Assembly: GCF_055900595.2 (NCBI RefSeq) | Contig: NZ_CM148325.1 | Reading direction: 5' to 3' (one strand) | Length of the DNA stretch: 64,000 nt | Notes under the pieces: generated by a model | Told to the model about the DNA's origin: nothing | The model's input: the letters and a program-made list of their open reading frames with translations, nothing else | Databases searched by the model: none | Position numbers and translations under genes: made by a program | In this document: positions 3,723 to 53,354 of the stretch, one piece after another | Layout: every line of letters starts with the position of its first letter | How positions within the stretch are numbered: position 1 is the first letter of the stretch

Positions 3723-3740
3723 TTCATTCTTAACTCTCAC

Positions 3741-3775
3741 GCTTACCCTGAATATTCAGGGTAAGCGGTTTTACT
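3741..3775 (+). terminator. rho-independent terminator downstream of maeB
   Basis: Inverted repeat cgcttaccctg-aatatt-cagggtaagcg followed by a T-run, 19 bp after the maeB stop. Confidence 0.6.
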
Positions 3776-4013
3776 GCAATATATTAGTAAAGCTTATTAC
3801 TAAGTTTTCGAGTAATAAAAAAGCAGCATATAAACTATCTCGATATTATTTTATTTATATTCATGCGTTGCATATGAAAGTTTATGCATCACAGTAAATA
3901 TCTCTCCATTCTTAGTGATCTACCTCACCTTTTAAACGCGCTTGCCGAATTTTGTTATTTACTCTGACGAAAAATTGTCACGATACACGCAAGTTTTTCA
4001 CAGGCGGCGACTC

Positions 4014-4349
4014 ATGGATAAAGAACGCATCATTCAGGAATTTGTGCCCGGCAAACAGGTCACACTGGCGCATCTCATCGCGCATCCCGGCGAGGAACTG
4101 GCGAAGAAAATCGGCGTTCCGGATGCGGGCGCAATCGGCATTATGACGCTAACACCCGGCGAAACGGCGATGATCGCCGGTGATTTAGCGCTGAAAGCCG
4201 CCGATGTGCATATCGGTTTTCTCGACCGTTTTAGCGGCGCGCTGGTGATTTATGGCTCGGTGGGTGCAGTAGAAGAAGCGTTATCACAAACCGTCAGTGG
4301 TTTAGGTCGCTTATTAAATTATACGCTGTGTGAAATGACCAAAAGTTAA
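4014..4349 (+). CDS. eutS: ethanolamine utilisation microcompartment shell protein EutS
   Basis: Internal ATG of track ORF 3942-4349; product [15 protein letters not shown]... (111 aa), BMC shell family; first gene of eut operon. Confidence 0.88.
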
Positions 4350-4361
4350 TACGAGGCATTC

Positions 4362-4841
4362 ATGAAACGAATTGCGTTTGTGGGTACCGTCGGGGCAGGA
4401 AAAACAACGTTATTTAATGCGTTGCAGGGGAATTATACCCTCGCCAGAAAAACACAGGCCGTGGAATTTAATGATAAGGGCGATATTGATACGCCGGGTG
4501 AATATTTTAGCCATCCCCGCTGGTATCACGCCTTAATTACCACGCTACAGGATGTGGACATGCTGATTTATGTCCACGGCGCGAATGACCCGGAAAGCCG
4601 ATTGCCTGCCGGGTTGCTGGATATTGGTGCCAGCAAACGGCAAATCGCCGTCATCAGTAAAACGGACATGCCGGATGCTGACGTCGCAGCAACGCGAAAG
4701 TTATTGCTTGAAACTGGTTTTGAAGAGCCGATTTTCGAGCTAAACAGCCACGACCCGCAAAGCGTGCAGCAACTGGTGAATTATCTGGCATCTCTCACCG
4801 AACAGGAGGAAGCAGGTGAAAAAACTCATCACAGCGAATGA
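4362..4841 (+). CDS. eutP: ethanolamine utilisation GTPase/acetate kinase-like protein EutP
   Basis: 159-aa ORF with P-loop GTVGAGKTT; operon position. Confidence 0.9.
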   Translation: MKRIAFVGTVGAGKTTLFNALQGNYTLARKTQAVEFNDKGDIDTPGEYFSHPRWYHALITTLQDVDMLIYVHGANDPESRLPAGLLDIGASKRQIAVISKTDMPDADVAATRKLLLETGFEEPIFELNSHDPQSVQQLVNYLASLTEQEEAGEKTHHSE

Positions 4842-5517
4842 TATTCGTGAAGCACATGCGCGCGGCGAACAGGCAATGTCTGTGGTTCTGCGCGCCAGCA
4901 TTATTACCCCGGAAGCCCGCGAAGTGGCGGACTTGTTGGGGTTTACCATCACCGAATGCACTGAATCGACGCCAGTAGCGGCATCTGTTCCCGTCAGCGT
5001 GCCTGCCGATAAAACTGAAAGCCAGCGTATCCGCGAAACCATCATCGCCCAGCTGCCGGAAGGCCAGTTTACCGAAAGCCTGGTCGCGCAGCTGATGGAA
5101 AAAGTGATGAAGGAAAAACAGTCGCTGGAGCAGGGGGCAATGCAGCCGAGTTTTAAATCGGTGACCGGCAAAGGCGGCATCAAAGTTATTGATGGCAGCA
5201 GCGTGAAGTTTGGTCGTTTCGATGGCGCGGAACCGCACTGCGTAGGCTTGACTGATCTCGTGACCGGAGACGACGGCAGCAGCATGGCCGCCGGTTTTAT
5301 GCAGTGGGAGAACGCCTTCTTCCCGTGGACCCTGAACTACGACGAAATCGACATGGTACTGGAAGGGGAGCTTCATGTTCGCCATGAAGGCGAAACCATG
5401 ATCGCTAAAGCAGGCGACGTGATGTTTATCCCGAAAGGTTCCAGCATCGAATTTGGTACGACATCCAGTGTGAAATTCCTGTATGTCGCCTGGCCGGCTA
5501 ACTGGCAATCCCTATGA
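4816..5517 (+). CDS. eutQ: ethanolamine utilisation cupin protein EutQ
   Basis: 233-aa ORF; overlaps eutP 3' end by 26 nt; operon position. Confidence 0.9.
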   Translation: MKKLITANDIREAHARGEQAMSVVLRASIITPEAREVADLLGFTITECTESTPVAASVPVSVPADKTESQRIRETIIAQLPEGQFTESLVAQLMEKVMKEKQSLEQGAMQPSFKSVTGKGGIKVIDGSSVKFGRFDGAEPHCVGLTDLVTGDDGSSMAAGFMQWENAFFPWTLNYDEIDMVLEGELHVRHEGETMIAKAGDVMFIPKGSSIEFGTTSSVKFLYVAWPANWQSL

Positions 5518-6317
5518 AAGATTTCATCACCGAAGCATGGCTAAGAGCGAACCATACGCTCAGCGAAGGCGCAGAGATCCATCTCCCTGCGGACAGTCGC
5601 CTGACGCCCTCTGCCCGGGAGTTACTGGAAAGCCGCCATCTGCGCATCAAGTTTATTGACGAGCAGGGCCGCCTGTTTGTTGACGATGAACAGCAGCAGC
5701 TACAGCCCGTTCACGTGCTGACCAGTAGTGATGAACATCCGCAGGCGTGCTGCGAACTGTGTCACCAGCCAGTGGCGAAAAAGCCGGACACGCTGACTCA
5801 CCTGTCGGCGGAAAAAATGGTCGCCAAAAGCGATCCGCGCCTGGGTTTTCGCGCTGTTCTCGACAGCACCATTGCGCTGGTAGTGTGGCTGCAAATTGAG
5901 CTGACAGAACCGTGGCAGCCGTGGCTGGCGGATATCCGTTCGCGTCTTGGCAACATTATGCGTGCCGATGTGTTGGGCGAACCGATGGGCTGCCAGGCGA
6001 TTGTCGGGTTTTCTGACGAAGATCTGCATCGACTTTCTCACCAGCCACTGCGTTATCTCGACCACGATCATCTGGTGCCGGAAGCCAGCCACGGACGCGA
6101 TGCGGCGTTGCTGAATCTGCTACGCACCAAAGTGCGGGAAACCGAAACCGTCGCGGCGCAGGTGTTTATTACCCGTAGTTTTGAAGTATTACGCCCGGAC
6201 ATCTTGCAGGCGCTGAACCGCCTTTCCAGCACGGTTTACGTGATGATGATTTTGAGCGTAACGAAGCAGCCGCTAACGGTGAAGCAGATCCAACAACGAC
6301 TGGGGGAAACGCAATGA
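5514..6317 (+). CDS. eutT: ethanolamine utilisation corrinoid adenosyltransferase EutT
   Basis: 267-aa ORF; 4-nt overlap with eutQ; operon position. Confidence 0.9.
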
Positions 6318-7330
6318 TTATTGAACGTTGTCGTGAACTGGCGTTGCGAGCGCCCGCCAGAGTGGTTTTTCCTGATGCGTTAGACCAACGCGTGCTGAAA
6401 GCTGCGCAATATTTACATCAACAAGGTCTGGCAACGCCCATTCTGGTCGCCAATCCGTTTGAACTTCGTCAGTTTGCGCTCAGTCACGGCGTGGCGATGG
6501 ACGGGCTACAGGTGATAGATCCGCATGGCAACCTCGCAATGCGGGAAGAATTTGCTCTCCGCTGGCTGGCCCGTGCGGGCGAAAAAACGCCGCCGGATGC
6601 GCTGGAAAAACTCACCGATCCGCTGATGTTCGCTGCCGCAATGGTCAGCGCCGGGACAGCGGATGTCTGTATCGCGGGCAATCTCTCTTCCACGGCAAAT
6701 GTGCTGCGTGCCGGATTACGCATTATTGGCTTACAGCCAGGCTGTAAAACGCTCTCCTCCATTTTCCTGATGCTGCCACAGTACAGTGGCCCCGCGTTGG
6801 GCTTTGCCGATTGCAGCGTAGTGCCACAGCCGACGGCGGCACAACTGGCGGATATCGCGCTTGCCAGCGCCGAAACCTGGCGAGCCATCACCGGAGAAGA
6901 GCCGCGCGTGGCGATGTTGTCGTTCTCCAGTAACGGCAGCGCCCGTCACCCCTGCGTTGCCAACGTGCAGCAAGCGACAGAAATCGTCCGTGAGCGCGCA
7001 CCGCAGCTGGTCGTCGATGGCGAGTTGCAGTTTGACGCCGCCTTTGTGCCAGAAGTGGCGGCGCAAAAAGCGCCAGCCAGCCCGCTACAGGGCAAAGCCA
7101 ATGTGATGGTTTTTCCGTCGCTGGAGGCGGGAAATATTGGCTACAAAATCGCACAACGACTTGGCGGATATCGTGCCGTCGGGCCATTGATACAAGGACT
7201 TGCCGCGCCGATGCACGATCTCTCTCGTGGTTGTAGCGTGCAGGAAATTATCGAGCTGGCGCTGGTGGCAGCTGTGCCGCGTCAGACAGAAGTGAACCGC
7301 GAAAGCAGTTTACAAACACTGGTTGAATGA
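6314..7330 (+). CDS. eutD: ethanolamine utilisation phosphotransacetylase EutD
   Basis: 338-aa PTA-family ORF; 4-nt overlap with eutT. Confidence 0.9.
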
Positions 7331-7368
7331 ACGGTCCCGTTCTGGACCCTGATAAAGAGGAAAGCACA

Positions 7369-7662
7369 ATGGAAGCATTAGGAATGATCGAAACCCGGGG
7401 CCTGGTTGCACTGATTGAGGCTTCTGATGCGATGGTGAAAGCTGCGCGCGTCAAACTGGTTGGTGTTAAGCAGATTGGTGGCGGCCTGTGTACTGCCATG
7501 GTTCGCGGTGATGTTGCAGCCTGTAAAGCCGCGACCGATGCCGGTGCCGCAGCGGCACAGCGTATCGGTGAACTGGTATCCGTACATGTTATTCCGCGTC
7601 CGCACGGCGATCTGGAAGAGGTCTTCCCGATCGGCCTGAAAGGCGATAGCAGCAACCTGTAA
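7369..7662 (+). CDS. eutM: microcompartment shell protein EutM (BMC-H)
   Basis: Internal ATG of ORF 7327-7662; product [28 protein letters not shown]... (97 aa). Confidence 0.9.
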
Positions 7663-7767
7663 TCACCCTGTGTGACGTCGATCCGGGCGTCACGCTCTCT
7701 CCGTTTTCTTTTACCTTCCGCGGAGGGTAAGGAGAGCTTTTACCTGAAATACGCCACGGAGGCGGGT

Positions 7768-8055
7768 ATGAAACTGGCAGTCGTCACAGGACAAATTGTT
7801 TGTACCGTACGCCATCACGGACTGGCGCATGACAAATTGCTGATGGTGGAAATGATTGATCCACAAGGTAATCCTGATGGGCAATGTGCTGTCGCCATCG
7901 ACAATATTGGCGCGGGAACCGGGGAGTGGGTGTTGCTGGTGAGTGGCAGTTCCGCCCGCCAGGCGCATAAAAGCGAAACGTCACCGGTCGATCTGTGCGT
8001 AATTGGCATTGTCGATGAGGTGGTCTCTGGCGGTCAGGTAATTTTCCACAAATAA
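7768..8055 (+). CDS. eutN: microcompartment vertex protein EutN
   Basis: Internal ATG of ORF 7672-8055; product MKLAVVTGQIVCTVRHHGL... (95 aa). Confidence 0.88.
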   Translation: MKLAVVTGQIVCTVRHHGLAHDKLLMVEMIDPQGNPDGQCAVAIDNIGAGTGEWVLLVSGSSARQAHKSETSPVDLCVIGIVDEVVSGGQVIFHK

Positions 8056-8066
8056 GGCAGAACATC

Positions 8067-9470
8067 ATGAATCAACAGGATATTGAACAGGTGGTGAAAG
8101 CGGTACTGCTGAAAATGCAAAGCAGTGACACGTCGCCCGCCGCCGTTCATGAGATGGGCGTTTTTGCTTCCCTGGATGACGCCGTTGCGGCGGCCAAAAT
8201 TGCCCAGCAAGGGTTAAAAAGCGTGGCAATGCGCCAGTTAGCCATTGCTGCTATTCGTGAAGCAGGCGAAAAACACGCCAGAGATTTAGCGGAACTTGCC
8301 GTCAGTGAAACGGGTATGGGCCGCGTAGAAGATAAATTTGCCAAAAACGTCGCTCAGGCACGCGGTACGCCAGGCGTTGAGTGCCTCTCTCCACAGGTGC
8401 TGACCGGTGACAACGGCCTGACTTTAATTGAAAACGCGCCCTGGGGCGTGGTGGCTTCGGTGACGCCTTCCACTAACCCGGCGGCAACCGTAATTAATAA
8501 CGCCATCAGCCTGATTGCCGCGGGCAACAGCGTCATTTTTGCCCCGCATCCGGCGGCGAAAAAAGTCTCTCAACGGGCTATTACGTTGCTCAACCAGGCG
8601 ATTGTTGCCGCAGGCGGGCCGGAAAACTTACTGGTTACTGTGGCAAATCCAGATATCGAAACCGCGCAACGCTTATTCAAGTTTCCGGGCATCGGTCTGT
8701 TGGTGGTGACCGGCGGCGAAGCGGTGGTGGAAGCGGCGCGCAAACACACCAATAAACGTCTGATTGCCGCAGGTGCTGGCAACCCGCCGGTGGTGGTGGA
8801 TGAAACCGCCGACCTCGCCCGTGCCGCTCAGTCTATCGTCAAAGGCGCTTCTTTCGATAACAACATCATTTGTGCCGATGAAAAGGTACTGATTGTTGTT
8901 GATAGCGTAGCCGATGAACTGATGCGTCTGATGGAAGGCCAGCACGCGGTGAAACTGACCGCAGAACAGGCGCAGCGACTGCAACCGGTGTTGCTGAAAA
9001 ATATCGACGAGCGCGGAAAAGGCACCGTCAGCCGTGACTGGGTGGGGCGCGATGCGGCGAAAATCGCGGCGGCAATCGGCCTGAACGTGCCGCAAGAAAC
9101 GCGCTTGCTGTTTGTAGAAACCACCGAAGAACATCCGTTTGCCGTAACCGAATTGATGATGCCGGTGCTGCCGGTCGTGCGCGTCGCCAACGTGGAGGAT
9201 GCCATTGCGCTGGCGGTGAAACTGGAAGGCGGTTGCCACCACACGGCGGCAATGCACTCGCGCAATATCGAGAACATGAACCAAATGGCGAACGCCATTG
9301 ATACCAGTATTTTCGTTAAGAACGGACCGTGCATTGCCGGGCTGGGGCTGGGCGGGGAAGGCTGGACCACGATGACCATCACTACGCCAACCGGTGAAGG
9401 GGTAACCAGCGCGCGTACGTTTGTCCGTCTGCGTCGCTGTGTATTAGTCGATGCGTTTCGCATTGTTTAA
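8067..9470 (+). CDS. eutE: CoA-acylating acetaldehyde dehydrogenase EutE
   Basis: 467-aa aldehyde dehydrogenase family ORF; operon position. Confidence 0.92.
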   Translation: MNQQDIEQVVKAVLLKMQSSDTSPAAVHEMGVFASLDDAVAAAKIAQQGLKSVAMRQLAIAAIREAGEKHARDLAELAVSETGMGRVEDKFAKNVAQARGTPGVECLSPQVLTGDNGLTLIENAPWGVVASVTPSTNPAATVINNAISLIAAGNSVIFAPHPAAKKVSQRAITLLNQAIVAAGGPENLLVTVANPDIETAQRLFKFPGIGLLVVTGGEAVVEAARKHTNKRLIAAGAGNPPVVVDETADLARAAQSIVKGASFDNNIICADEKVLIVVDSVADELMRLMEGQHAVKLTAEQAQRLQPVLLKNIDERGKGTVSRDWVGRDAAKIAAAIGLNVPQETRLLFVETTEEHPFAVTELMMPVLPVVRVANVEDAIALAVKLEGGCHHTAAMHSRNIENMNQMANAIDTSIFVKNGPCIAGLGLGGEGWTTMTITTPTGEGVTSARTFVRLRRCVLVDAFRIV

Positions 9471-9480
9471 GGAGTAACCG

Positions 9481-10317
9481 ATGGCGCACGACGAACAATG
9501 GCTTACCCCGCGGCTGCAAACGGCGGCAACGCTGTGTAACCAGACGCCCGCCGCGTCGGAATCTCCGCTGTGGCTGGGGGTGGATCTGGGCACCTGCGAT
9601 GTGGTGTCGATGGTTGTCGACGGCGACGGTCAGCCGGTGGCGGTATGCCTCGACTGGGCCGATGTGGTCCGCGACGGCATCGTCTGGGATTTCTTCGGTG
9701 CTGTCACCATTGTTCGTCGCCATCTCGATACCCTTGAGCAGCAATTTGGTCGCCGTTTTAGCCATGCGGCGACCTCATTTCCTCCTGGTACGGACCCGCG
9801 TATTTCCATCAACGTGCTGGAGTCTGCCGGGCTGGAAGTGAGCCATGTGCTGGATGAGCCAACCGCAGTCGCGGATCTACTGCAACTGGATAACGCAGGC
9901 GTAGTGGATATTGGCGGCGGCACTACCGGAATTGCCATCGTGAAAAAGGGCAAGGTGACTTATTCAGCGGATGAAGCGACCGGCGGACATCACATTTCTC
10001 TGACTCTCGCCGGAAATCGCCGTATTTCGCTGGGAGAGGCAGAGCAGTACAAGCGCGGTCACGGTGACGAGATTTGGCCTGCGGTGAAGCCGGTGTACGA
10101 AAAAATGGCGGACATTGTTGCCCGACATATTGAAGGGCAGGGCATTACTGATTTATGGCTGGCGGGCGGCTCCTGTATGCAACCGGGCGTGGCGGAACTG
10201 TTTTGCAAACAATTCCCGGCGTTACAGGTGCATCTACCGCAGCACAGTTTGTTTATGACCCCGCTGGCGATCGCCAGTAGCGGGCGAGAGAAAGCGGAGG
10301 GGATCTATGCAAAATGA
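9481..10317 (+). CDS. eutJ: ethanolamine utilisation chaperone-like protein EutJ
   Basis: 278-aa ORF with actin/Hsp70-like ATPase motifs (DLGTCD, DIGGGTTG). Confidence 0.9.
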   Translation: MAHDEQWLTPRLQTAATLCNQTPAASESPLWLGVDLGTCDVVSMVVDGDGQPVAVCLDWADVVRDGIVWDFFGAVTIVRRHLDTLEQQFGRRFSHAATSFPPGTDPRISINVLESAGLEVSHVLDEPTAVADLLQLDNAGVVDIGGGTTGIAIVKKGKVTYSADEATGGHHISLTLAGNRRISLGEAEQYKRGHGDEIWPAVKPVYEKMADIVARHIEGQGITDLWLAGGSCMQPGVAELFCKQFPALQVHLPQHSLFMTPLAIASSGREKAEGIYAK

Positions 10318-11494
10318 ATTGCAGACCGCGCTCTTTCAGGCGTTCGATACCCTGAATCTGCAACGGGTAAAAACATTTAGCGTTCCACCGGTGACGCTTT
10401 GCGGCCCGGGCGCGGTGAGCAGTTGCGGACAGCAAGCACAAACGCGTGGGCTGAAACATCTGTTCGTGATGGCAGACAGCTTTTTGCATCAGGCGGGGAT
10501 GACCGCCGGGCTGACGCGCAGTCTGGCCGTTAAAGGCATCGCCATGACGCTCTGGCCATGTCCGGTGGGCGAACCGTGCATCACTGACGTGTGTGCCGCC
10601 GTGGCGCAACTGCGCGAATCAGGCTGTGACGGGGTGATCGCGTTTGGCGGTGGCTCGGTGCTGGATGCGGCAAAAGCCGTTGCGTTGCTGGTGACGAACC
10701 CCGACAGCACGCTGGCAGAAATGTCAGAAACCAGCGTTCTGCAACCGCGTCTGCCGCTGATTGCCATTCCAACTACCGCCGGAACCGGCTCTGAAACCAC
10801 CAATGTAACGGTGATTATCGACGCGGTGAGCGGGCGCAAGCAGGTGTTAGCACATGCCTCGTTGATGCCGGATGTGGCGATTCTCGATGCCGCGCTGACC
10901 GAAGGTGTGCCGTCGCATGTCACGGCAATGACCGGTATCGACGCGTTAACTCATGCCATTGAAGCGTACAGCGCGCTGAACGCTACACCGTTTACCGACA
11001 GTCTGGCGATTGGTGCCATTGCGATGATTGGCAAATCACTGCCGAAAGCAGTGGGCTACGGTCACGACCTTGCCGCGCGCGAGAGTATGTTGCTGGCTTC
11101 ATGCATGGCGGGAATGGCATTTTCCAGTGCCGGACTTGGGTTATGTCACGCGATGGCGCATCAGCCGGGGGCGGCGCTGCATATTCCGCACGGACTGGCG
11201 AACGCCATGCTGCTGCCCACGGTGATGGAGTTTAACCGGATGGTCTGTCGCGAACGCTTTAGTCAGATTGGTCGGGCGCTGCGAACTAAAAAATCCGACG
11301 ATCGTGATGCTATTAACGCGGTAAGTGAGCTGATTGCGGAAGTCGGGATTGGTAAACGACTGGGCGATGTTGGTGCGGCATCTGCGCATTACGGCGCATG
11401 GGCGCAGGCCGCGCTGGAAGATATTTGTCTGCGCAGCAACCCGCGTACCGCCAGCCTGGAGCAGATTGTCGGCTTGTACGCAGCGGCGCAATAA
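10307..11494 (+). CDS. eutG: iron-containing alcohol dehydrogenase EutG
   Basis: 395-aa Fe-ADH family ORF; overlaps eutJ by 11 nt. Confidence 0.9.
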   Translation: MQNELQTALFQAFDTLNLQRVKTFSVPPVTLCGPGAVSSCGQQAQTRGLKHLFVMADSFLHQAGMTAGLTRSLAVKGIAMTLWPCPVGEPCITDVCAAVAQLRESGCDGVIAFGGGSVLDAAKAVALLVTNPDSTLAEMSETSVLQPRLPLIAIPTTAGTGSETTNVTVIIDAVSGRKQVLAHASLMPDVAILDAALTEGVPSHVTAMTGIDALTHAIEAYSALNATPFTDSLAIGAIAMIGKSLPKAVGYGHDLAARESMLLASCMAGMAFSSAGLGLCHAMAHQPGAALHIPHGLANAMLLPTVMEFNRMVCRERFSQIGRALRTKKSDDRDAINAVSELIAEVGIGKRLGDVGAASAHYGAWAQAALEDICLRSNPRTASLEQIVGLYAAAQ

Positions 11495-11496
11495 AT

Positions 11497-11580
<84 letters not shown>

Positions 11581-11610
11581 ATAAATAACAACTAACAGGG
11601 AGTAAAGGCG

Positions 11611-12837
11611 ATGGGAATTAACGAAATCATCATGTACATCATGATGTTCTTTATGCTGATAGCTGCCGTGGACAGGATCCTGTCGCAGTTCGGCGGTTCT
11701 GCTCGTTTCCTCGGTAAGTTCGGTAAAAGTATCGAAGGATCCGGCGGCCAGTTCGAAGAAGGCTTTATGGCAATGGGCGCACTGGGCCTGGCGATGGTCG
11801 GTATGACCGCACTGGCACCAGTTCTGGCCCACGTACTTGGGCCGGTGATTATCCCGGTTTACGAAATGCTCGGTGCTAACCCATCGATGTTCGCCGGAAC
11901 ACTGCTGGCGTGCGACATGGGCGGCTTCTTCCTCGCGAAAGAGCTGGCGGGCGGCGATGTGGCAGCGTGGCTATACTCTGGGTTAATTCTCGGATCGATG
12001 ATGGGGCCAACGATTGTGTTTTCCATTCCGGTGGCGCTCGGCATTATCGAACCTTCTGACCGTCGTTATCTGGCGCTCGGCGTGCTGGCGGGCATTGTGA
12101 CCATTCCAATTGGCTGTATCGCTGGAGGTCTGGTAGCTATGTATTCCGGTGTGCAGATCAACGGGCAGCCGGTGGAATTCACCTTTGCGCTTATCCTGAT
12201 GAATATGATCCCGGTACTTATCGTCGCGGTACTGGTGGCGCTGGGGCTGAAATTCATCCCGGAAAAAATGATCAACGGCTTCCAGATCTTCGCCAAGTTC
12301 CTCGTTGCATTGATCACCCTCGGTCTTGCTGCCGCGGTAGTGAAATTCCTCCTTGGCTGGGAACTGATCCCCGGTCTTGATCCGATCTTTATGGCCCCTG
12401 GCGATAAACCCGGTGAAGTGATGCGCGCCATTGAAGTTATCGGTTCTATCTCCTGCGTGCTGTTAGGGGCGTATCCGATGGTGCTGCTGCTGACCCGCTG
12501 GTTTGAAAAACCGCTGATGAGCGTCGGTAAAGTGCTGAATATGAACAACATCGCGGCAGCCGGCATGGTGGCAACGCTTGCCAACAACATCCCGATGTTT
12601 GGCATGATGAAGCAGATGGATACCCGCGGCAAAGTCATCAACTGTGCCTTCGCCGTTTCCGCTGCTTTCGCCCTGGGTGACCACTTAGGCTTCGCCGCTG
12701 CCAACATGAACGCCATGATCTTCCCGATGATTGTCGGCAAGTTGATCGGCGGCGTAACGGCGATTGGCGTGGCGATGATGCTGGTGCCAAAAGAAGACGC
12801 GACCGCGGCTAAAACCGAAGCGGAGGCACAATCGTGA
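11611..12837 (+). CDS. eutH: ethanolamine permease EutH
   Basis: 408-aa polytopic membrane ORF; operon position. Confidence 0.92.
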   Translation: MGINEIIMYIMMFFMLIAAVDRILSQFGGSARFLGKFGKSIEGSGGQFEEGFMAMGALGLAMVGMTALAPVLAHVLGPVIIPVYEMLGANPSMFAGTLLACDMGGFFLAKELAGGDVAAWLYSGLILGSMMGPTIVFSIPVALGIIEPSDRRYLALGVLAGIVTIPIGCIAGGLVAMYSGVQINGQPVEFTFALILMNMIPVLIVAVLVALGLKFIPEKMINGFQIFAKFLVALITLGLAAAVVKFLLGWELIPGLDPIFMAPGDKPGEVMRAIEVIGSISCVLLGAYPMVLLLTRWFEKPLMSVGKVLNMNNIAAAGMVATLANNIPMFGMMKQMDTRGKVINCAFAVSAAFALGDHLGFAAANMNAMIFPMIVGKLIGGVTAIGVAMMLVPKEDATAAKTEAEAQS

Positions 12838-14237
12838 ACACTCGCCAGCTACTGAGCGTCGGTATCGATATCGGCACTACCACCACCCAGGTGATCTTCT
12901 CCCACCTGGAGCTGGTTAACCGTGCGGCGGTGTCGCAGGTGCCGCGCTACGAATTCATCAAACGCGAAATTAGCTGGCAAAGCCCGGTGTTCTTTACCCC
13001 TGTCGATAAACTGGGCGGTTTAAAAGAAGCGGAACTGAAAACCTTAATCCTCGAGCAATATCAGGCTGCGGGCATTGCGCCGGAAAGCGTTGATTCTGGT
13101 GCCATCATCATCACCGGTGAAAGCGCGAAAACCCGCAATGCTCGCCCGGCGGTGATGACGCTCTCCCAGTCGCTTGGCGATTTTGTCGTCGCCAGCGCCG
13201 GGCCGCATCTCGAATCCGTGATCGCCGGTCACGGTGCCGGGGCGCAAACCCTTTCTGAACAACGGCTGTGTCGGGTACTGAATATCGATATTGGCGGTGG
13301 CACCGCGAACTACGCTTTGTTCGATGCCGGAAAAATCAGCGGCACCGCTTGCCTCAACGTCGGCGGTCGCCTGCTGGAAACCGACAGCCAGGGGCGCGTG
13401 GTTTACGCTCATAAACCGGGGCAGATGATAGTGGATGAGTGCTTCGGTGCAGGCACTGACGCCCGTTCGCTGACTGGCGCGCAGCTGGTGCAGGTTACCC
13501 GGCGGATGGCGGAACTGATTGTCGAAGTGATTGACGGAACGCTCTCGCCGCTCGCGCAGGCATTGATGCAAACCGGTTTGCTGCCCGCAGGTGTTACGCC
13601 AGAAATCATTACGCTTTCTGGCGGCGTGGGCGAATGTTATCGCCACCAGCCCGCTGACCCGTTCTGTTTTGCCGATATTGGCCCGCTTCTGGCAACGGCG
13701 CTGCATGACCATCCGCGCCTGCGTGAGATGAACGTGCAGTTTCCGGCGCAAACCGTACGCGCCACGGTGATTGGCGCGGGCGCACATACCCTTTCGCTCT
13801 CTGGCAGCACAATCTGGCTGGAGGGGGTACAACTGCCGCTGCGCAATTTGCCGGTGGCGATCCCAATTGATGAAACGGATCTGGTGAGTGCCTGGCAACA
13901 AGCGCTAATTCAGCTGGATCTTTGCCCCAAAACTGACGCGTACGTGCTGGCGCTTCCCGCCTCGCTGCCTGTGCGTTACGCCGCGGTACTGACGGTCATC
14001 AACGCGCTGGTCGATTTCGTCGCGCGTTTTCCGAATCCGCATCCCCTGCTGGTGGTGGCCGGGCAGGATTTTGGTAAAGCTCTGGGCATGTTGTTGCGCC
14101 CACAGCTACAACAACTCCCGTTGGCAGTCATTGACGAAGTGATTGTCCGCGCGGGGGACTATATCGACATTGGTACGCCTCTTTTTGGCGGATCGGTTGT
14201 GCCGGTGACGGTGAAATCACTCGCATTTCCTTCCTGA
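12834..14237 (+). CDS. eutA: ethanolamine ammonia-lyase reactivase EutA
   Basis: 467-aa ORF; 4-nt overlap with eutH. Confidence 0.92.
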   Translation: MNTRQLLSVGIDIGTTTTQVIFSHLELVNRAAVSQVPRYEFIKREISWQSPVFFTPVDKLGGLKEAELKTLILEQYQAAGIAPESVDSGAIIITGESAKTRNARPAVMTLSQSLGDFVVASAGPHLESVIAGHGAGAQTLSEQRLCRVLNIDIGGGTANYALFDAGKISGTACLNVGGRLLETDSQGRVVYAHKPGQMIVDECFGAGTDARSLTGAQLVQVTRRMAELIVEVIDGTLSPLAQALMQTGLLPAGVTPEIITLSGGVGECYRHQPADPFCFADIGPLLATALHDHPRLREMNVQFPAQTVRATVIGAGAHTLSLSGSTIWLEGVQLPLRNLPVAIPIDETDLVSAWQQALIQLDLCPKTDAYVLALPASLPVRYAAVLTVINALVDFVARFPNPHPLLVVAGQDFGKALGMLLRPQLQQLPLAVIDEVIVRAGDYIDIGTPLFGGSVVPVTVKSLAFPS

Positions 14238-14248
14238 GGGAACGACTT

Positions 14249-15610
14249 ATGAAACTAAAGACCACATTGTTCGGCAATGTATATCAGTTTAAGGATGTAA
14301 AAGAGGTGCTGGCTAAAGCCAACGAACTGCGTTCGGGGGATGTGCTGGCGGGCGTTGCAGCGGCAAGTTCACAGGAGCGCGTGGCGGCAAAGCAGGTGTT
14401 GTCGGAAATGACCGTAGCGGACATCCGCAATAATCCGGTGATTGCCTATGAAGATGACTGCGTGACGCGGCTGATTCAGGACGACGTTAACGAAACGGCC
14501 TACAACCAGATTAAAAACTGGAGCATCAGCGAACTGCGTGAGTATGTGCTGAGTGATGAAACCAGCGTGGACGACATTGCCTTTACCCGCAAAGGGCTGA
14601 CCTCGGAAGTGGTCGCGGCGGTAGCGAAGATTTGCTCCAACGCGGACCTGATCTACGGCGCGAAGAAAATGCCGATTATCAAAAAGGCCAATACTACCAT
14701 CGGTATTCCGGGCACCTTTAGCGCCCGTTTGCAGCCGAACGATACCCGTGACGACGTGCAGAGTATCGCCGCGCAAATCTACGAAGGGCTTTCCTTCGGG
14801 GTAGGCGATGCGGTGATCGGCGTTAACCCGGTGACTGACGACGTGGAAAACTTAAGCCGCGTGCTGGATACCATCTATGGCGTGATCGACAAATTCAACA
14901 TTCCGACCCAGGGCTGCGTGCTGGCGCACGTTACTACCCAGATTGAAGCGATCCGTCGCGGCGCGCCGGGCGGGCTGATTTTCCAGAGCATCTGCGGCAG
15001 CGAAAAAGGGCTGAAAGAATTTGGCGTGGAGCTGGCGATGCTCGATGAAGCACGCGCAGTGGGCGCAGAGTTTAACCGTATCGCCGGGGAAAACTGCCTC
15101 TACTTCGAAACCGGGCAAGGTTCTGCGCTATCGGCGGGCGCTAACTTCGGCGCAGATCAGGTAACGATGGAAGCGCGTAACTACGGGCTGGCACGTCATT
15201 ACGATCCGTTTATCGTCAACACCGTAGTGGGCTTTATTGGGCCAGAGTATCTCTACAACGACCGGCAGATTATCCGTGCGGGCTTAGAAGATCACTTTAT
15301 GGGCAAACTGAGCGGCATTTCTATGGGCTGTGACTGCTGCTACACCAACCACGCTGACGCTGACCAGAACCTCAACGAAAACCTGATGATCCTGCTCGCC
15401 ACCGCAGGCTGCAACTACATCATGGGGATGCCGCTGGGTGATGACATCATGCTCAACTACCAGACCACCGCATTCCACGATACCGCCACTGTGCGTCAGT
15501 TACTCAACCTGCGCCCGTCACCGGAGTTTGAACGCTGGCTGGAAAGCATGGGCATTATGGCAAACGGTCGCCTGACCAAACGGGCGGGCGATCCGTCACT
15601 GTTCTTCTGA
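14249..15610 (+). CDS. eutB: ethanolamine ammonia-lyase heavy chain EutB
   Basis: 453-aa ORF starting 11 nt after eutA stop. Confidence 0.93.
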   Translation: MKLKTTLFGNVYQFKDVKEVLAKANELRSGDVLAGVAAASSQERVAAKQVLSEMTVADIRNNPVIAYEDDCVTRLIQDDVNETAYNQIKNWSISELREYVLSDETSVDDIAFTRKGLTSEVVAAVAKICSNADLIYGAKKMPIIKKANTTIGIPGTFSARLQPNDTRDDVQSIAAQIYEGLSFGVGDAVIGVNPVTDDVENLSRVLDTIYGVIDKFNIPTQGCVLAHVTTQIEAIRRGAPGGLIFQSICGSEKGLKEFGVELAMLDEARAVGAEFNRIAGENCLYFETGQGSALSAGANFGADQVTMEARNYGLARHYDPFIVNTVVGFIGPEYLYNDRQIIRAGLEDHFMGKLSGISMGCDCCYTNHADADQNLNENLMILLATAGCNYIMGMPLGDDIMLNYQTTAFHDTATVRQLLNLRPSPEFERWLESMGIMANGRLTKRAGDPSLFF

Positions 15611-15630
15611 TGACGCGGAGATAACACATC

Positions 15631-16518
15631 ATGGATCAAAAACAGATTGAAGAAATTGTACGCAGCGTGATGGCGTCAATGGGACAAGCGGCCCCCGCGC
15701 CGTCAGAAGCAAAATGCGCCACTACCACCTGTGCAGCACCGATGACCTCGGAAAGCTGCGCGCTGGATTTAGGTTCCGCAGAAGCAAAAGCGTGGATTGG
15801 CGTTGAAAACCCACATCGCGCAGACGTATTAACTGAACTGCGCCGCAGCACCGTGGCTCGCGTCTGTACCGGTCGTGCCGGTCCGCGTCCGCGTACCCAG
15901 GCGTTGCTGCGTTTCCTGGCCGATCACTCTCGTTCGAAAGACACCGTACTGAAAGAAGTGCCGGAAGAGTGGGTGAAAGCGCAGGGCTTGCTGGAGGTCC
16001 GCTCTGAAATTAGCGACAAAAATCTCTATCTGACTCGCCCGGATATGGGCCGCCGCTTGTGTGCAGAGGCTGTTGAAGCGCTGAAAGCGCAGTGTGTTGC
16101 CAATCCGGACGTACAGGTCGTTATTTCTGATGGCCTGTCAACTGATGCGATCACCGTGAACTACGAAGAGATCCTGCCACCGCTGATGGCGGGCCTGAAA
16201 CAGGCCGGGTTGAAAGTCGGCACACCGTTCTTTGTGCGTTACGGTCGCGTGAAGATTGAAGATCAGATTGGCGAACTTCTTGGCGCGAAAGTGGTGATCC
16301 TGCTGGTGGGGGAACGCCCAGGATTAGGGCAGTCAGAAAGCCTCTCCTGCTACGCCGTTTACTCGCCGCGTATGGCAACCACCGTTGAGGCCGATCGCAC
16401 CTGTATCTCTAACATTCACCAGGGCGGCACGCCGCCGGTTGAAGCCGCAGCCGTCATTGTGGATTTGGCGAAACGTATGCTGGAGCAGAAAGCATCCGGC
16501 ATCAACATGACCCGATAA
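15631..16518 (+). CDS. eutC: ethanolamine ammonia-lyase light chain EutC
   Basis: 295-aa ORF; operon position. Confidence 0.93.
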
Positions 16519-16527
16519 GGAGGCATC

Positions 16528-17187
16528 ATGCCAGCTTTAGATTTGATTCGACCGTCGGTAACCGCCATGCGGGTGATTGCCTCTGTCAACGCCGAATTTG
16601 CGCGTGAACTGAAATTGCCGCCGCATATTCGTAGCCTCGGGCTGATTTCTGCTGATTCCGATGACGTCACCTACATTGCGGCTGACGAAGCGACCAAGCA
16701 GGCGATGGTTGAAGTCGTGTATGGTCGCTCGCTGTATGCGGGAGCTGCACACGGGCCGTCACCGACTGCCGGTGAGGTGCTGATTATGCTTGGTGGGCCA
16801 AACCCGGCGGAAGTGCGTGCTGGTCTGGATGCGATGGTTGCGCATATTGAAAATGGCGCTGCTTTCCAGTGGGCTAATGATGCAGAAAACACAGCCTTCC
16901 TGGCGCATGTCGTTTCGCGTACCGGCTCTTATCTCTCATCAACCGCCGGGATCACGCTTGGCGATCCGCTGGCGTATCTGGTGGCACCGCCGCTGGAAGC
17001 GACCTACGGCATTGATGCAGCGTTGAAATCTGCCGACGTGCAGCTGGTGACCTATGTCCCGCCACCGTCTGAAACCAACTACTCGGCAGCATTTTTAACC
17101 GGTAGCCAGGCCGCGTGTAAAGCAGCCTGTAACGCCTTTACCGATGCAGTGCTGGAAATCGCGCGTAATCCAATCCAGCGTGCGTAA
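16528..17187 (+). CDS. eutL: microcompartment shell protein EutL (tandem BMC)
   Basis: 219-aa ORF; operon position. Confidence 0.92.
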
Positions 17188-17193
17188 CGGAGG

Positions 17194-17700
17194 TTGCCGA
17201 TGATCAATGCACTGGGATTGCTGGAAGTGGACGGCATGGTCGCCGCGATAGATGCAGCTGATGCCATGCTCAAAGCAGCTAACGTTCGTCTGCTCAGTCA
17301 CGAAGTGCTTGACCCTGGTCGCCTAACGCTGGTGGTGGAAGGCGATCTGGCGGCGTGTCGTGCGGCGCTGGACGCAGGTTGTGCTGCCGCGATGCGTACC
17401 GGGCGTGTCATCAGCCGTAAGGAGATCGGTCGGCCAGACGATGACACCCAGTGGCTGGTTACTGGCTTTAACCGCCAGCCGAAGCAACCCGTAAAGGAAC
17501 CCGACGCGCCAGTTATCGTCGCGGAATCTGCTGACGAGTTGTTGGCGCTGTTAACATCAGTACGTCAGGGAATGACGGCAGGAGAAGTGGCTGCCCACTT
17601 TGGCTGGCCGCTGGAAAAAGCCAGAAATGCGCTCGAACAGCTCTTTTCTGCCGGGACGTTACGTAAACGCAGTAGTCGTTATCGTCTCAAGCCCCATTAA
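17194..17700 (+). CDS. eutK: microcompartment shell protein EutK
   Basis: 168-aa ORF with BMC domain plus C-terminal basic tail; true start may be the ATG 6 nt downstream. Confidence 0.9.
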   Translation: MPMINALGLLEVDGMVAAIDAADAMLKAANVRLLSHEVLDPGRLTLVVEGDLAACRAALDAGCAAAMRTGRVISRKEIGRPDDDTQWLVTGFNRQPKQPVKEPDAPVIVAESADELLALLTSVRQGMTAGEVAAHFGWPLEKARNALEQLFSAGTLRKRSSRYRLKPH

Positions 17701-17745
17701 CCTGTCGGAGGTGCCGGGTGTCCTACAACACCCGGCATTAACATC

Positions 17746-18798
17746 ATGAAAAAGACCCGTACAGCTAATTTGCACCATCTTTATCATGAACCCTTACCCG
17801 AAAACCTGAAGCTAACGCCGAAGGTCGAAGTGGATAATGTTCATCAACGGCAAACAACGGATGTCTATGAACATGCTTTGACGATTACCGCCTGGCAGCA
17901 GATTTACGATCAGCTGCATCCGGGCAAATTTCATGGTGAATTTACGGAAATTCTGCTCGATGATATTCAGGTTTTCCGTGAATACACGGGGCTGGCGCTG
18001 CGTCAGTCGTGCCTGGTCTGGCCGAATTCGTTCTGGTTTGGCATTCCGGCGACGCGCGGTGAGCAGGGATTTATCGGTTCGCAATGTCTGGGAAGCGCAG
18101 AAATAGCGACGCGCCCTGGTGGAACCGAGTTTGAATTAAGTACGCCGGACGATTACACGATCCTTGGCGTGGTGCTTTCTGAAGATGTCATCACCCGGCA
18201 GGCTAACTTTTTGCATAACCCGGAAAGGGTGCTGCATATGTTACGTAACCAGTCGGCGCTGGAAGTGAAAGAGCAGCATAAAGCCGCGCTGTGGGGCTTT
18301 GTCCAACAGGCTCTGGCGACATTTTGCGAGAACCCGGAAAATCTCCATCAGCCTGCAGTGCGAAAAGTGCTGGGGGATAATTTGCTAATGGCGATGGGGG
18401 CGATGCTGGAAGAAGCGCAGCCAATGGTGACGGTGGAAAGCATCAGTCATCAGAGTTACCGTCGGTTGCTTTCCCGCGCCCGTGAATATGTGCTGGAAAA
18501 CATGTCCGAACCGGTGACGGTGCTGGACTTGTGTAATCAACTGCACGTCAGTCGCCGCACCTTGCAAAACGCATTTCACGCTATTTTGGGCATTGGCCCG
18601 AATGCGTGGCTGAAACGCATTCGCCTGAACGCCGTGCGCCGTGAACTGATTAGCCCGTGGTCGCAAAGTATGACGGTAAAAGACGCCGCCATGCAGTGGG
18701 GATTCTGGCATCTTGGGCAGTTTGCCACGGATTATCAGCAATTGTTTGCAGAAAAGCCTTCACTGACGCTGCATCAGCGGATGCAGGAACTGGAGTGA
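17746..18798 (+). CDS. eutR: AraC-family transcriptional activator of eut operon
   Basis: 350-aa ORF with C-terminal AraC-type HTH; last gene of operon. Confidence 0.92.
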
Positions 18799-18874
18799 GG
18801 GTGAGGGCCGGATGAGGATGGTGTTTGATCCGGTCCATAGTGAAGTTACAAATTACGTTGAATTGCTATGTATT

Positions 18875-19192
18875 TTATTGCCCAACGGGATAGGCGATAA
18901 ACAAACCGACAATTGTCAAAATACACGCCAGCAGGAATACCAACATACAATTTACGCGCTTTCGCGAAATTTTAAATAAATAGCAAAATAGTGTTGTTAC
19001 CACGATCACTACCGGGATAGTCATAAAATTAATAACGATGAGTGCTATCAATCCAAAACTTGCTCCTCCACCGTGGGGAATAAAAATGTGTTCTTCAAAA
19101 TAAACTTCTATAGCAAATGCCAGCACACATCCCAGAAAACTCATATCCAGATGAGGGTGCCATTTACTTTCTTTATGTGATGTGTCTGACAT
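18875..19192 (-). CDS. hypothetical small membrane protein (about three predicted TM segments), not recognised
   Basis: 105-aa ORF; hydrophobic stretches LGCVLAFAIEVYF, FGLIALIVINFMTIPVVIVVTTLFCYLF, MLVFLLACILTIVGLFIAYPV; SD-like gggag about 9 nt upstream of ATG; 40 bp downstream of the 420-aa ORF on same strand; AT-rich. Confidence 0.6.
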   Translation of the reverse strand: MSDTSHKESKWHPHLDMSFLGCVLAFAIEVYFEEHIFIPHGGGASFGLIALIVINFMTIPVVIVVTTLFCYLFKISRKRVNCMLVFLLACILTIVGLFIAYPVGQ

Positions 19193-19232
19193 TCTTAAAT
19201 GCTCCCGTGAGCAAACTGGCGCAAAATAATTT

Positions 19233-20495
19233 CTAAGATTGCTGATAAGACGTCGCTGTTGTCCGGCACTCCGGGCAGATAAACGCGTAAATTATCCCTT
19301 CGCCGTATTGTTCAATATCGGCATAATCCAGTTGCGCAAGAAACATCATTGTGTGGGAACATTGCGGACAGAGAGGATATTCCGCGTCCTGAATCCAGGT
19401 TGGATGCCCGCCAAGTTGCGAGAAAGAGACAGGTAAAAATGGGTCTGCGGCAAATAACGGTGACCTAAGGTTTCCCTGTCTCATGCTGTTTACAGGGAGT
19501 CGACGCCATTCCGATACATCATCCGGCAGCCAGGCAGGCGGGATATTTTTTGCAGACAAATGAGCGTTACCCTTTGAGTCCATGTAGCCGAAAATGGTGC
19601 TGTAGGCGGTGCAACATTCGCAAGTCACGACGCGAAAACTGCCGTTATCGCTAAGACCCGTTGCCTTCAGGTCAACGTCGAAAAGATTTGTTAGTGGCAA
19701 TGCGCAATTTGGACAGGTATCGTTGCGTTCATCAACAACACGCAAAGCTTCGCAAGACCCGGTGCTTTTCATCTCCAGATGAAAACATTGAGGAAAATAG
19801 AGATTACGCCTTTGATCTTCAGCGGTTAACTCCCAACCGGCCTCATGCGCATATTCTTCAGGCTCGATGTAAAGGGAGCTGCGCCACGGCGGTGGGCTAT
19901 TGCGCCAGTGGGCAAAACGTTCAACGACAACGTCATCCCCAATCCATGCCAGACATTGCAGAATACAATTTCTGTTTTCTGCATCATCCTCAACCCGTTC
20001 TAACAGCCTGTCGCGTACATCTGTGGGGGCGCGGTGGAAAGGCATATAAGAATCATTGTCCAAATCATCGTAAGAGATCCATTCTCTGAAATAGGCATTC
20101 AGATTCGCCTGGGTAAATGCCGCCAGACAAAGGCAAATCTCCTGAGCGAGCTTATATTCACCAGATGCAAAGCGTTCTGTGGCGTAATCAGCCATCAGCT
20201 GCGCTTGATCGGTGGTCAGTTGTTGATACAGGGCATCTGTGGGAACGGGGCAGGGAGTCCAGTCGATTAACGCATCGAATTTCCGCGGTTGGTGAATTAA
20301 TTTCAGCATGACAACCGGATCGCTTAACCCTGCAAACGCATTCACGATCTTTTTGTTTTTCTTGATATATTCGTCGTGCTCACGTTGCTGTTGGGCCTGC
20401 TCGCAGGGCATGCAGTATCCGTTAGTACGCGCTGCGGTTTCCGGAAGAATGGTTGATATACAAGCGGGGCTTTTACAGGGAATACGGTGAGTCAT
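19233..20495 (-). CDS. hypothetical cysteine-rich protein, unrecognised; C-terminal region resembles DUF1963/YwqG-type domain
   Basis: 420-aa ORF with aggag SD 7 nt upstream of ATG; three CxxC-containing pairs (CKSPAC/CMPC, CPNC/CECC, CPQC/CPEC); no signal peptide or TM segment; not in K-12 gene order between eutR and hemF. Confidence 0.8.
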   Translation of the reverse strand: MTHRIPCKSPACISTILPETAARTNGYCMPCEQAQQQREHDEYIKKNKKIVNAFAGLSDPVVMLKLIHQPRKFDALIDWTPCPVPTDALYQQLTTDQAQLMADYATERFASGEYKLAQEICLCLAAFTQANLNAYFREWISYDDLDNDSYMPFHRAPTDVRDRLLERVEDDAENRNCILQCLAWIGDDVVVERFAHWRNSPPPWRSSLYIEPEEYAHEAGWELTAEDQRRNLYFPQCFHLEMKSTGSCEALRVVDERNDTCPNCALPLTNLFDVDLKATGLSDNGSFRVVTCECCTAYSTIFGYMDSKGNAHLSAKNIPPAWLPDDVSEWRRLPVNSMRQGNLRSPLFAADPFLPVSFSQLGGHPTWIQDAEYPLCPQCSHTMMFLAQLDYADIEQYGEGIIYAFICPECRTTATSYQQS

Positions 20496-20633
20496 AGAGG
20501 CGCTCCTTGCCTGAGGATATTAAGTCGAAAGAGATTATTATTAGATATTAGGGTGTCACTATGGCACACAAATTAAAACAGCATTAATTTTATGCCACCA
20601 ACCGAGGGTTATTTTTCTTTTATTTTCATGATA

Positions 20634-35937: not shown

Positions 35938-36038
35938 CTGCCTGATGCGCTACGCTTATCAGGCCTACAAGGTTCCTGTAATATATTGAATTAGCAATAT
36001 TTTGTAGGCCGAATAAGGCGTTTACGCTGCATCTGGCA
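35938..36038. repeat. BIME (two inverted REP units)
   Basis: tgcctgatgcgctacgcttatcaggcctaca and inverted tgtaggccgaataaggcgtttacgctgcatctggca. Confidence 0.7.
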
Positions 36039-36104
36039 TAAACAAAGTGCACTTTGTCAATAATCTGCTTTGTCGGCAGTTGTTGCTGCCGACAAATGCA
36101 GTTT

Positions 36105-36839
36105 TTAATTTTCGTGTGGAAACGTAGTAAGGTCATCAATCATTTTTTGAAGTATTGGTGAGTCCTGACCATCACCCCATTGAAGAATTTTTGCGGTAAG
36201 CTGATGACGGGCTAGTGCATTGAGTCCCATCTTTTTAAGTTTATGGGAGATTTTACCCATGACTTTAATCTGACCGAATGCAGTTGCGTAGGTAATCATA
36301 TTGCTCTGGATAGTGCTCATTTCATCGGCTAGTAATTGCGCACGAATATCCTCTTCAAGAATACTTTCCATAGCGATATATTTCATACCCCAGATAGTTT
36401 CAATTAACATTTGAGGGAAATCAGCACAATCTAGATCCGGCTCTTTACGCAGGCTATTTTCAAGAACGTTTAGAGCATCAGCACCTTCATCGCTGCCAAA
36501 AGGAGATTCTTCATCCCAGCAACACACATAAAGTGGATCAGTAAAATGGCACTGGAAGTTTGGGTGTGACGTTTTAACATGTAACCCAATTTCTTCATCA
36601 TCAAAATAGTAGCGATCCATGTAGTTAAAGTTTGGATCTTCTTGATAGCCTTTCTTCATTTTTGCGGCAATCAATTTACTGGCTTCTTTCAGACACTGTT
36701 CTTCATTATCGAACTCTTTTGTCTGGAATTTACCAATACTACCTACCTTGCCATAGTTGATGGCTAAACTATCCCCTTCGTAATCTATCCACCAAAATTT
36801 ATTCGATTTTTCATCGTTATAAATAAAGCATTTTTTCAT
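36105..36839 (-). CDS. yfeS: WGR-domain protein YfeS
   Basis: 244-aa ORF MKKCFIYNDEKSNKFWWIDYEGDSL...; K-12 synteny. Confidence 0.88.
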   Translation of the reverse strand: MKKCFIYNDEKSNKFWWIDYEGDSLAINYGKVGSIGKFQTKEFDNEEQCLKEASKLIAAKMKKGYQEDPNFNYMDRYYFDDEEIGLHVKTSHPNFQCHFTDPLYVCCWDEESPFGSDEGADALNVLENSLRKEPDLDCADFPQMLIETIWGMKYIAMESILEEDIRAQLLADEMSTIQSNMITYATAFGQIKVMGKISHKLKKMGLNALARHQLTAKILQWGDGQDSPILQKMIDDLTTFPHEN

Positions 36840-36871
36840 GTTACCTCCTGTAAATGCCTTGCCAAAGCGGA

Positions 36872-37246
36872 TTAATTCCCTTCCGCAGGCACCGTTTTAT
36901 CCGTCTGCGCAATTAACGCATGTAAAAAAGGTTGCGCGTTTTCATCGCTCTTACCGGGCATCTTCACGATATACGGCTTCCCGGTAATCGATGATGACGA
37001 AGCAACCTTATCAATAAATTGCTCAGCAGTATCAATGCGATTACGGGTATTGCCCAGCTTCAGACGCAAATGGGAAACCGCTTCATCGCAGGTATGTTCA
37101 TCGCCGTTGCGCACAAATATCAAATCCTTTTTCTGTGCTAATCCCTCCAGCATGGCGTTGATGCGGGCTTCTTCGTGGGCGGTTAACTTCGCGTAAGCGG
37201 GGAGTGTCATTAGCAGCGTAATGACCAGACAAATGATTTTCTTCAT
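36872..37246 (-). CDS. yfeK: exported protein YfeK
   Basis: 124-aa ORF with signal peptide; synteny. Confidence 0.85.
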
Positions 37247-37271
37247 TGAATTACCTTATCCTTGTTTTGTG

Positions 37272-37337
<66 letters not shown>

Positions 37338-53350: not shown

Positions 53351-53354
53351 GAAG

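Follow-up and report, generated by a model that had tools for sequence, protein, structure and literature searches.

The eutA-eutB junction as an unoccupied CPZ-55 attachment site in a complete eut operon of Escherichia

The eutA and eutB genes of the window (the whole 64-kb stretch of DNA that was analysed) are separated by 11 nt, and their junction is proposed here to be a native, unoccupied attachment site within a complete ethanolamine utilization (eut) operon on a cryptic clade I (ST485-like) chromosome, with no element integrated (probability about 93%). An earlier note on this DNA had placed the end of eutA at 14237 and the start of eutB at 14249, and both coordinates are exact according to the ORF list and the NCBIfam identities of the two proteins. 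EutA matches NF007991 (equivalog) with 1070.9 bits against a cutoff of 799, aligned over residues 1-467 of 467, and EutB matches NF011649 with 664 bits against a cutoff of 554. The direct read-out of 14220-14251 is ctcgcatttccttccTGAgggaacgacttATG, and 14223-14257 contains the codons GCA TTT CCT TCC TGA, the spacer and then ATG AAA CTA. The eutA stop codon TGA occupies 14235-14237, and the Shine-Dalgarno sequence of eutB, GAGG(G), lies at 14236-14240, overlapping this stop and held by the stop codon together with the spacer. No terminator-like site was found on the plus strand at the junction.

The eut operon and its function

The genes eutSPQTDMNEJGHABCLKR are found in this order on one strand at 4014-18798, all 17 of them full length. 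The features of the operon and of the junction are listed below; each gene given without further remark has the K-12 length and a full-length NCBIfam match above the cutoff.

3723-4013, plus strand: maeB-eutS intergenic region with the terminator hairpin of maeB (3740-3767) and the principal promoter region of eut, from near-identity to K-12
4014-4349, plus strand: eutS
4362-4841, plus strand: eutP
4816-5517, plus strand: eutQ
5514-6317, plus strand: eutT
6314-7330, plus strand: eutD
7369-7662, plus strand: eutM
7768-8055, plus strand: eutN
8067-9470, plus strand: eutE
9481-10317, plus strand: eutJ
10307-11494, plus strand: eutG
11611-12837, plus strand: eutH
12834-14237, plus strand: eutA, ethanolamine ammonia-lyase reactivase, 467 aa, GTG start, 98.29% amino-acid identity to K-12
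14230-14237, plus strand: unoccupied attB core CTTCCTGA of CPZ-55/IntZ-family elements, including the eutA stop codon, from the comparison of prophage ends
14238-14248, plus strand: eutA-eutB spacer GGGAACGACTT, 11 nt, from the sequence and the ORF list
14249-15610, plus strand: eutB, ethanolamine ammonia-lyase large subunit, 453 aa, 99.78% amino-acid identity to K-12
15631-16518, plus strand: eutC
16528-17187, plus strand: eutL
17200-17700, plus strand: eutK
17746-18798, plus strand: eutR

In a gene-by-gene comparison, 17/17 eut genes had the MG1655 lengths and no internal stops, and adjacent genes are separated or overlapped by -26 to +116 nt. These lengths, together with the full-length NCBIfam matches, bear out the description of a continuous, intact 17-gene eut operon in the earlier note. 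The PGAP annotation of a 99.97%-identical genome has an identical eut gene order. Across the 17 genes, the codon differences from K-12 comprise 558 synonymous and 68 nonsynonymous changes, a ratio which indicates strong purifying selection on the operon. The locus agrees with the EUT1 type in its 17 genes, their order and single strand, in its intact reading frames under purifying selection, and in having a regulatory region 5' of eutS and eutR at the 3' end.

The regulatory sequences are also conserved. The maeB-eutS region is identical to K-12 in 274 of 293 alignment columns, and its last ~190 nt contain 3 differences; in the eutK-eutR spacer, 45/45 positions are identical. An EutR-dependent promoter P1 upstream of eutS is described in PMC7617246. 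A strict consensus scan found no sigma-70 promoter upstream of eutS, as expected for an activator-dependent promoter.

Two side observations concern the spacing of these genes. The eutG-eutH gap (11495-11610) has one REP/BIME-like palindromic unit of ~100 bp, compared with two tandem copies in K-12 (116 vs 216 bp), and a related copy, 77-82% identical, is present at 61905-62015. Between eutR and hemF there is a 1.8-kb insert (18802-20633) absent from K-12, which holds two minus-strand ORFs, one of 105 aa (18875-19192) with no family match and one of 420 aa (19233-20495) with a weak Pfam match to DUF1963/YwqG. Of 5,426 complete E. coli genomes, only 28 have the insert, among them EPEC E2348/69 (92%), and it has homologues in E. 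albertii (80%), Citrobacter (72%), Salmonella Paratyphi A (54%) and Paenibacillus (~40%). It was considered as a defence system and rejected, having no PADLOC or NCBIfam match and only the weak DUF1963 match in Pfam.

E. coli requires external cobalamin, and the cobalamin uptake genes lie outside the window. The function of the operon can be read against strains that differ at the junction. In BW25113, which carries the prophage, eutS and eutR were induced and eutB was not, as measured by qPCR, and no microcompartments were formed (PMC7617246); this strain resembles a delta-eut strain, and once the prophage has been scarlessly removed, BW25113 can use ethanolamine as nitrogen source for growth, as the eut+ W3110 does (PMC11334477). 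Intact eut operons are functional in K-12 backgrounds and in Nissle, and B12-dependent growth on ethanolamine as well as microcompartments have been published for intact operons of other E. coli strains (PMC11334477, PMC7617246). On the basis of the purifying selection and of the published restoration by scarless prophage removal, the operon of the window is probably expressed and would support B12-dependent use of ethanolamine in its strain.

The proposed sequence of events at the junction is as follows. The last 8 bp of eutA (CTTCCTGA, stop codon included) are the crossover core for tyrosine-integrase elements of the CPZ-55/IntZ family. Because no element is integrated at this attB, eutA and eutB would be co-transcribed from the promoter upstream of eutS, and a ribosome terminating on eutA would have the ribosome-binding site of eutB (GAGG, overlapping the eutA stop) immediately behind it. 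The 6.8-kb prophage of K-12, whose orientation opposes eut transcription, separates eutA from eutB and would block the induction of eutB.

A contiguous operon could still be non-functional in the window's strain, through a regulatory or missense defect invisible in the ORFs, and this is considered unlikely. The evidence base is the sequence, the operon has 68 amino-acid differences from K-12 to accommodate, and the consensus promoter was not detected upstream of eutS; however, the 558:68 ratio indicates that purifying selection continues, all 17 proteins are full length and above curated cutoffs, the promoter region and the eutK-eutR spacer are near-identical to K-12, and intact eut operons work in K-12 backgrounds and in Nissle (PMC11334477, PMC7617246). 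Annotation and metabolic models for the lineage of the window should count ethanolamine use as present.

CPZ-55, the empty site and the lineage of the window

The MG1655 RefSeq record has a feature named 'cryptic prophage CPZ-55' at 2558691-2565480, of 6,790 bp, with intZ and yffL-yffS, flanked by eutB (b2441) and eutA (b2451). The prophage begins 12 nt past the start codon of eutB, directly adjoins the stop codon of eutA, and has its genes on the strand opposite to eut. The statement of the earlier note that CPZ-55 lies between eutA and eutB in MG1655 is confirmed by this annotation, and the alignment to MG1655 and other E. coli references that it had proposed as a check showed the insertion in K-12 and, in the window, the host flanks of CPZ-55 joined to each other. 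The left prophage end in K-12 reads CGCATTTCCTTCCTGA|ATGCGG and the right end ATCGATTCTTCCTGA|GGGAACGACTTATG, and the window corresponds exactly to the left host flank of attL, the core CTTCCTGA and the right host flank of attR. Three different elements (loci L001, L002 and L005) have a copy of the core at each end, which agrees with the published 8-bp duplication TCAGGAAG (PMC6379469). The eutA-eutB junction has also been described as a 'prophage insertion hot spot' (PMC6652756).

The junction therefore has the composition of an attB, with attL flank, core and attR flank as in the K-12 6.8-kb, L002 and L005 elements, and with integrase and element DNA absent from the site. Where the K-12 type has an intZ-type integrase and cargo, the window has 11 nt only. 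No CPZ-55 DNA was detected by blastn in the 64-kb window, the nine CPZ-55 proteins gave nothing at E<=1e-3 by tblastn, and three IntZ-family integrases gave nothing below E=4.5 by tblastn; these searches discard CPZ-55 remnants elsewhere in the window. Integration retains the eutA stop codon and the eutB Shine-Dalgarno sequence, and the damage in K-12 would be a transcriptional separation, with no gene disruption, consistent with the induction of eutS and eutR and not of eutB in BW25113 (PMC7617246).

Other elements use the same site. The element of S1-CAM-01-A at eutA/eutB (~12.5 kb) has IS elements and a gadC/decarboxylase/murI cargo, the one of 1504D004 (~12.4 kb) has a terminase-small-subunit-like gene, and both have the core CTTCCTGA and integrases 92-93% identical to IntZ. 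As a side observation, the cargo of non-CPZ-55 elements (L002, 2463-15000; L006, 20357-32344) resembles an acid-resistance module, with gadC, pyridoxal-dependent decarboxylase fragments and a murI-like glutamate racemase, accompanied by several IS elements. In strain 102651, eutA is truncated and eutB is split by IS903B copies.

The frequency of the empty state was obtained with a probe of 1,011 nt centred on the junction, which matched 5,423 of 5,426 complete E. coli genomes; the junction was counted as contiguous when at least 80% of the probe was covered at a single place. By this count, eutA and eutB are contiguous in 4,964 of the 5,426 genomes (91.5%). An intZ-type integrase adjoins eutB in 397 genomes (7.3%), as counted with a probe joining the eutB start to K-12 intZ and covered by at least 80%, many of these intZ regions being only 80-90% identical to K-12. 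From these two counts, the interrupted junctions are therefore mostly due to IntZ-family elements, and the remainder to IS-mediated rearrangements, e.g., L006. A previous survey reported CPZ-55 in 8% of 638 genomes (PMC6379469). The K-12 exception is already known in the literature, including the position of the prophage, the 8-bp duplication, the ~8% prevalence, the hot spot, and how function is lost and restored.

The exact 22-nt empty junction was found in 34 species-representative genomes, with members of Citrobacter, Klebsiella, Salmonella, Yokenella, Pluralibacter, Pseudocitrobacter, Intestinirhabdus and Escherichia, and in all 34 it is flanked by the EutA C-terminus and the EutB N-terminus. 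Because this junction is present across genera, the empty state is read as ancestral and as the norm, and as ordinary in this window, which falls among the ~91% of E. coli whose eut operon is uninterrupted, K-12 being the exception.

The lineage of the window is given by its divergence. Its identity to MG1655 is 95.50% across the 17 eut genes and that to K-12 strains is 97.0% in ptsI-ligA-zipA-cysK, and the near-identity to MG1655 core genes that defines the K-12 lineage was not found. In ptsI-ligA-zipA-cysK, an identity of at least 99% to the window is reached by only about 15 of 5,426 complete genomes, and on these comparisons the window is placed in a rare deep lineage. Strain E200086, typed as phylogroup 'Cryptic I', ST485, OND:H45 (PMC13064198), is 100% identical in the compared stretches 13738-14748, 18799-20633 and 36000-46000. 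Z0117EC0005 is 99.966% identical over 29.7 kb, and its empty site is identical to the junction of the window.

The absence of the prophage is a separate matter. The K-12 strain DH1Ec169 (L004, NZ_CP012127.1) has an empty junction identical base for base to that of the window, ER2796 lost CPZ-55 through precise excision (PMC4444293), XL1-Blue is without CPZ-55 (PMC11148124), and a laboratory W3110 is eut+ (PMC11334477). The earlier note had deduced a non-K-12 background from the missing prophage; the background itself is upheld by divergence (95.50% in eut, ~97.0% in housekeeping genes), but the deduction fails, because K-12 derivatives without CPZ-55 exist (DH1Ec169, ER2796 and XL1-Blue) and prophage absence is not diagnostic of background. 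The absence of CPZ-55 must not serve as a non-K-12 marker. In the match table, eutB also adjoins eutA without intZ in two further K-12 or K-12-like records, the O16:H48 mouse-gut strain PG20180060 and the laboratory-derived strain TUM24566.

These derivatives also bear on whether the site of the window was formerly occupied and lost its element through precise IntZ-mediated excision, the empty state being then secondary. CPZ-55 excision occurs at low frequency, in less than 1 per 100,000 cells (PMC3105296), K-12 derivatives have lost it precisely (PMC4444293 and the DH1Ec169 junction), and a precise excision regenerates attB scarlessly, with no trace of past occupancy in the sequence. However, eight records 99.9-100% identical to the window all have the contiguous junction, the site is empty in ~91% of E. 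coli, many genera share the identical junction, and there is no prophage remnant in the window, so that parsimony favours a never-occupied site and secondary loss is judged very improbable. An assembly artefact, with the prophage collapsed out, can be practically dismissed: nothing specific points to it beyond the many indel errors elsewhere in the near-identical assembly Z0117EC0005, and it is opposed by the identical contiguous junction of eight complete genome records and by a perfect attB with no truncated element ends.

The Z0117EC0005 assembly (L008, NZ_CP098223.1) differs from the window in other places. Its alignment to 28432-62936 has 104 gap openings over 28 kb, and many of its genes are annotated as 'frameshifted', including ligA, zipA and ptsI, most likely as a result of assembly indel errors. 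It has an IS421 between nupC and pdeA (window ~59064-59075) and three tRNA-Ala genes compared with two in the window (56371-56558). At 53076-53672, the window has four tRNA genes, followed by an RtT repeat element (Rfam RF00391, 53119-53244), and the corresponding tRNA cluster is annotated in Z0117EC0005 as three tRNA-Val and one tRNA-Lys.

Sequence conservation around the junction

The native, unoccupied site lies at the centre of a short island of conserved sequence, whose synonymous sites hardly vary across Enterobacteriaceae (Escherichia, Salmonella, Klebsiella, Citrobacter and relatives), with the following features.

~14155-14347, plus strand: island of ~190 nt with the last ~27 eutA codons, the spacer and the first ~33 eutB codons, from cross-species conservation
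14165-14210: predicted long hairpin (RNAalifold)
14226-14242, plus strand: predicted small hairpin UUUCCUU/CCU/GAGGGAA, in which the eutB Shine-Dalgarno sequence is paired to the last eutA codons (RNAalifold)

In an alignment of 25 species, the conservation per 30-nt bin increases from ~0.72-0.96 to 0.96-0.999 at 14170-14349 and falls again at 14350. Synonymous diversity is 0.075 inside the island vs 0.347 outside (Mann-Whitney p = 4e-17), and among the codons with an invariant amino acid, 31/50 inside are themselves invariant vs 32/274 outside (Fisher p = 1.7e-13). Among eight loci selected via EutA protein homology, S. enterica has 3/60 third-position differences inside vs 96/333 outside, K. 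quasivariicola has 5/60 vs 129/333 and E. albertii 0/60 vs 59/333; the difference is weaker in the operons most distant from the window (p = 0.09-0.16). A scan of the whole operon in 38 non-Escherichia loci, using 735 windows of 60 nt (mean identity 0.835, sd 0.054), ranked the island first with 0.977-0.992, including windows without overlap to the 22-mer, and other eut gene junctions peak at 0.94-0.96 only. The 60 nt with the highest conservation have the att core at their centre.

An origin of the island in ascertainment bias from the searched 22-mer was rejected. The flanks of the 22-mer, 30 nt to each side and outside the query, are 97-100% identical across genera, the windows without the 22-mer are 97.7-98.8% identical, and the eight loci chosen via EutA protein homology, with the junction sequence ignored, agree. 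In these loci the 11-nt eutA-eutB spacing is kept in 8/8, and the spacer sequence is identical to that of the window in 6/8 and GGGAACGATTT in 2/8. The C. koseri and C. amalonaticus loci, which show an abrupt loss of ungapped similarity, were examined as mobile copies of the junction and turned out to be ordinary eut operons with indels and ~85% identity.

Homogenisation by a copy of the flank carried on an element is not supported, with integrative islands poorly sampled in the phage, plasmid and IMG/VR collections. No copy of the island was found in 50,697 phage records, 72,556 plasmid records and IMG/VR, except in contiguous host DNA, and the IntZ elements examined have only ~20 nt of degenerate similarity to the junction flanks. 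Contiguous eutA-eutB junctions are present in the 4,935-bp unannotated GenBank record OR850921.1, named 'Salmonella phage S.Kent 1-2-1', and in a 5.4-kb IMG/VR contig (L051), both of which look like host rather than phage DNA. Another contig (L047, JGI 3300018405; junction 2904/2916), with an EutA 79% identical to that of the window, is mosaic: it matches the common type perfectly over ~95 nt upstream of the att core, and the first ~100 nt of its eutB are divergent, and the break at the core hints at recombination there.

On both strands, the RNA fold of the junction has an ordinary stability (z = 0.05 and -1.0), and Rfam gave no match to the island at E<=10. In the 14226-14242 hairpin, 7/7 pairs are invariant and hence uninformative for covariation. 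For the predicted structure, 97.0% of cells pair vs 96.3% in shuffles, most pairs never vary, and its covariation score, reached by 52/500 shuffles, is not significant. As an overlapping gene, the sole candidate is a 49-aa antisense ORF at 14128-14277, unconvincing with its TTG start and no visible ribosome-binding site.

The comparisons across species show constraint, not mechanism. Tentatively, the island may be an undescribed cis-acting element setting EutB expression; none of the top-ranked literature results mentions eutA or eutB, so that no prior description of an element at the eutA-eutB junction was found among them. Such an element may take the form of an mRNA structure that couples the initiation of eutB translation to the termination of eutA, of a processing site, or of a promoter, internal or antisense, and a translation-initiation or coupling element for eutB is offered as the best guess, itself a doubtful one. 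If true, a cis-acting element would also explain the choice of attB by the IntZ family, as a target invariant across hosts, and would give a second reason for the silencing of eutB by insertion, the upstream half of the element being severed from eutB. If real, the element would be a handle on the control of EutB dosage within the operon and on the reason for which the junction is a preferred landing site.

Comparison with known systems

Like the EUT1 locus of E. coli Nissle 1917, eut+ W3110 and S. enterica LT2, the window has the 17 genes with their order, protein lengths and 11-nt spacer, and it shares the flanks, with maeB upstream and hemF downstream. It differs in its ~4.5% nucleotide divergence from the K-12 eut genes, in having one REP/BIME unit between eutG and eutH vs two in K-12, and in the rare 1.8-kb two-gene insert separating eutR from hemF. 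MG1655 and BW25113 share with the window the eut genes, the core CTTCCTGA and an identical region at the eutA 3' end and eutB start; however, in these strains the eutA stop is parted from the spacer by 6,790 bp (intZ, yffL-yffS), and the window has nothing at this place. DH1Ec169, ER2796 and XL1-Blue are K-12 strains with a secondary loss of CPZ-55, and the window is ~95-96% identical to K-12 across eut; unlike in these derivatives, its empty state is most likely ancestral.

Prophages are known to integrate into conserved gene ends, e.g., e14 in icd, and P4-like and other elements in tRNA/tmRNA genes. As in the integration of e14 and P4-like elements, a tyrosine integrase, a short core within highly conserved sequence and the regeneration of a gene end (here, the eutA stop codon) are involved at the eutA-eutB site. 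In contrast to e14 and P4-like elements, the eutA/eutB elements were not found to carry a long duplicate of the gene end, and the target is an intra-operon junction, where the flanking genes are left intact and the operon is split transcriptionally.
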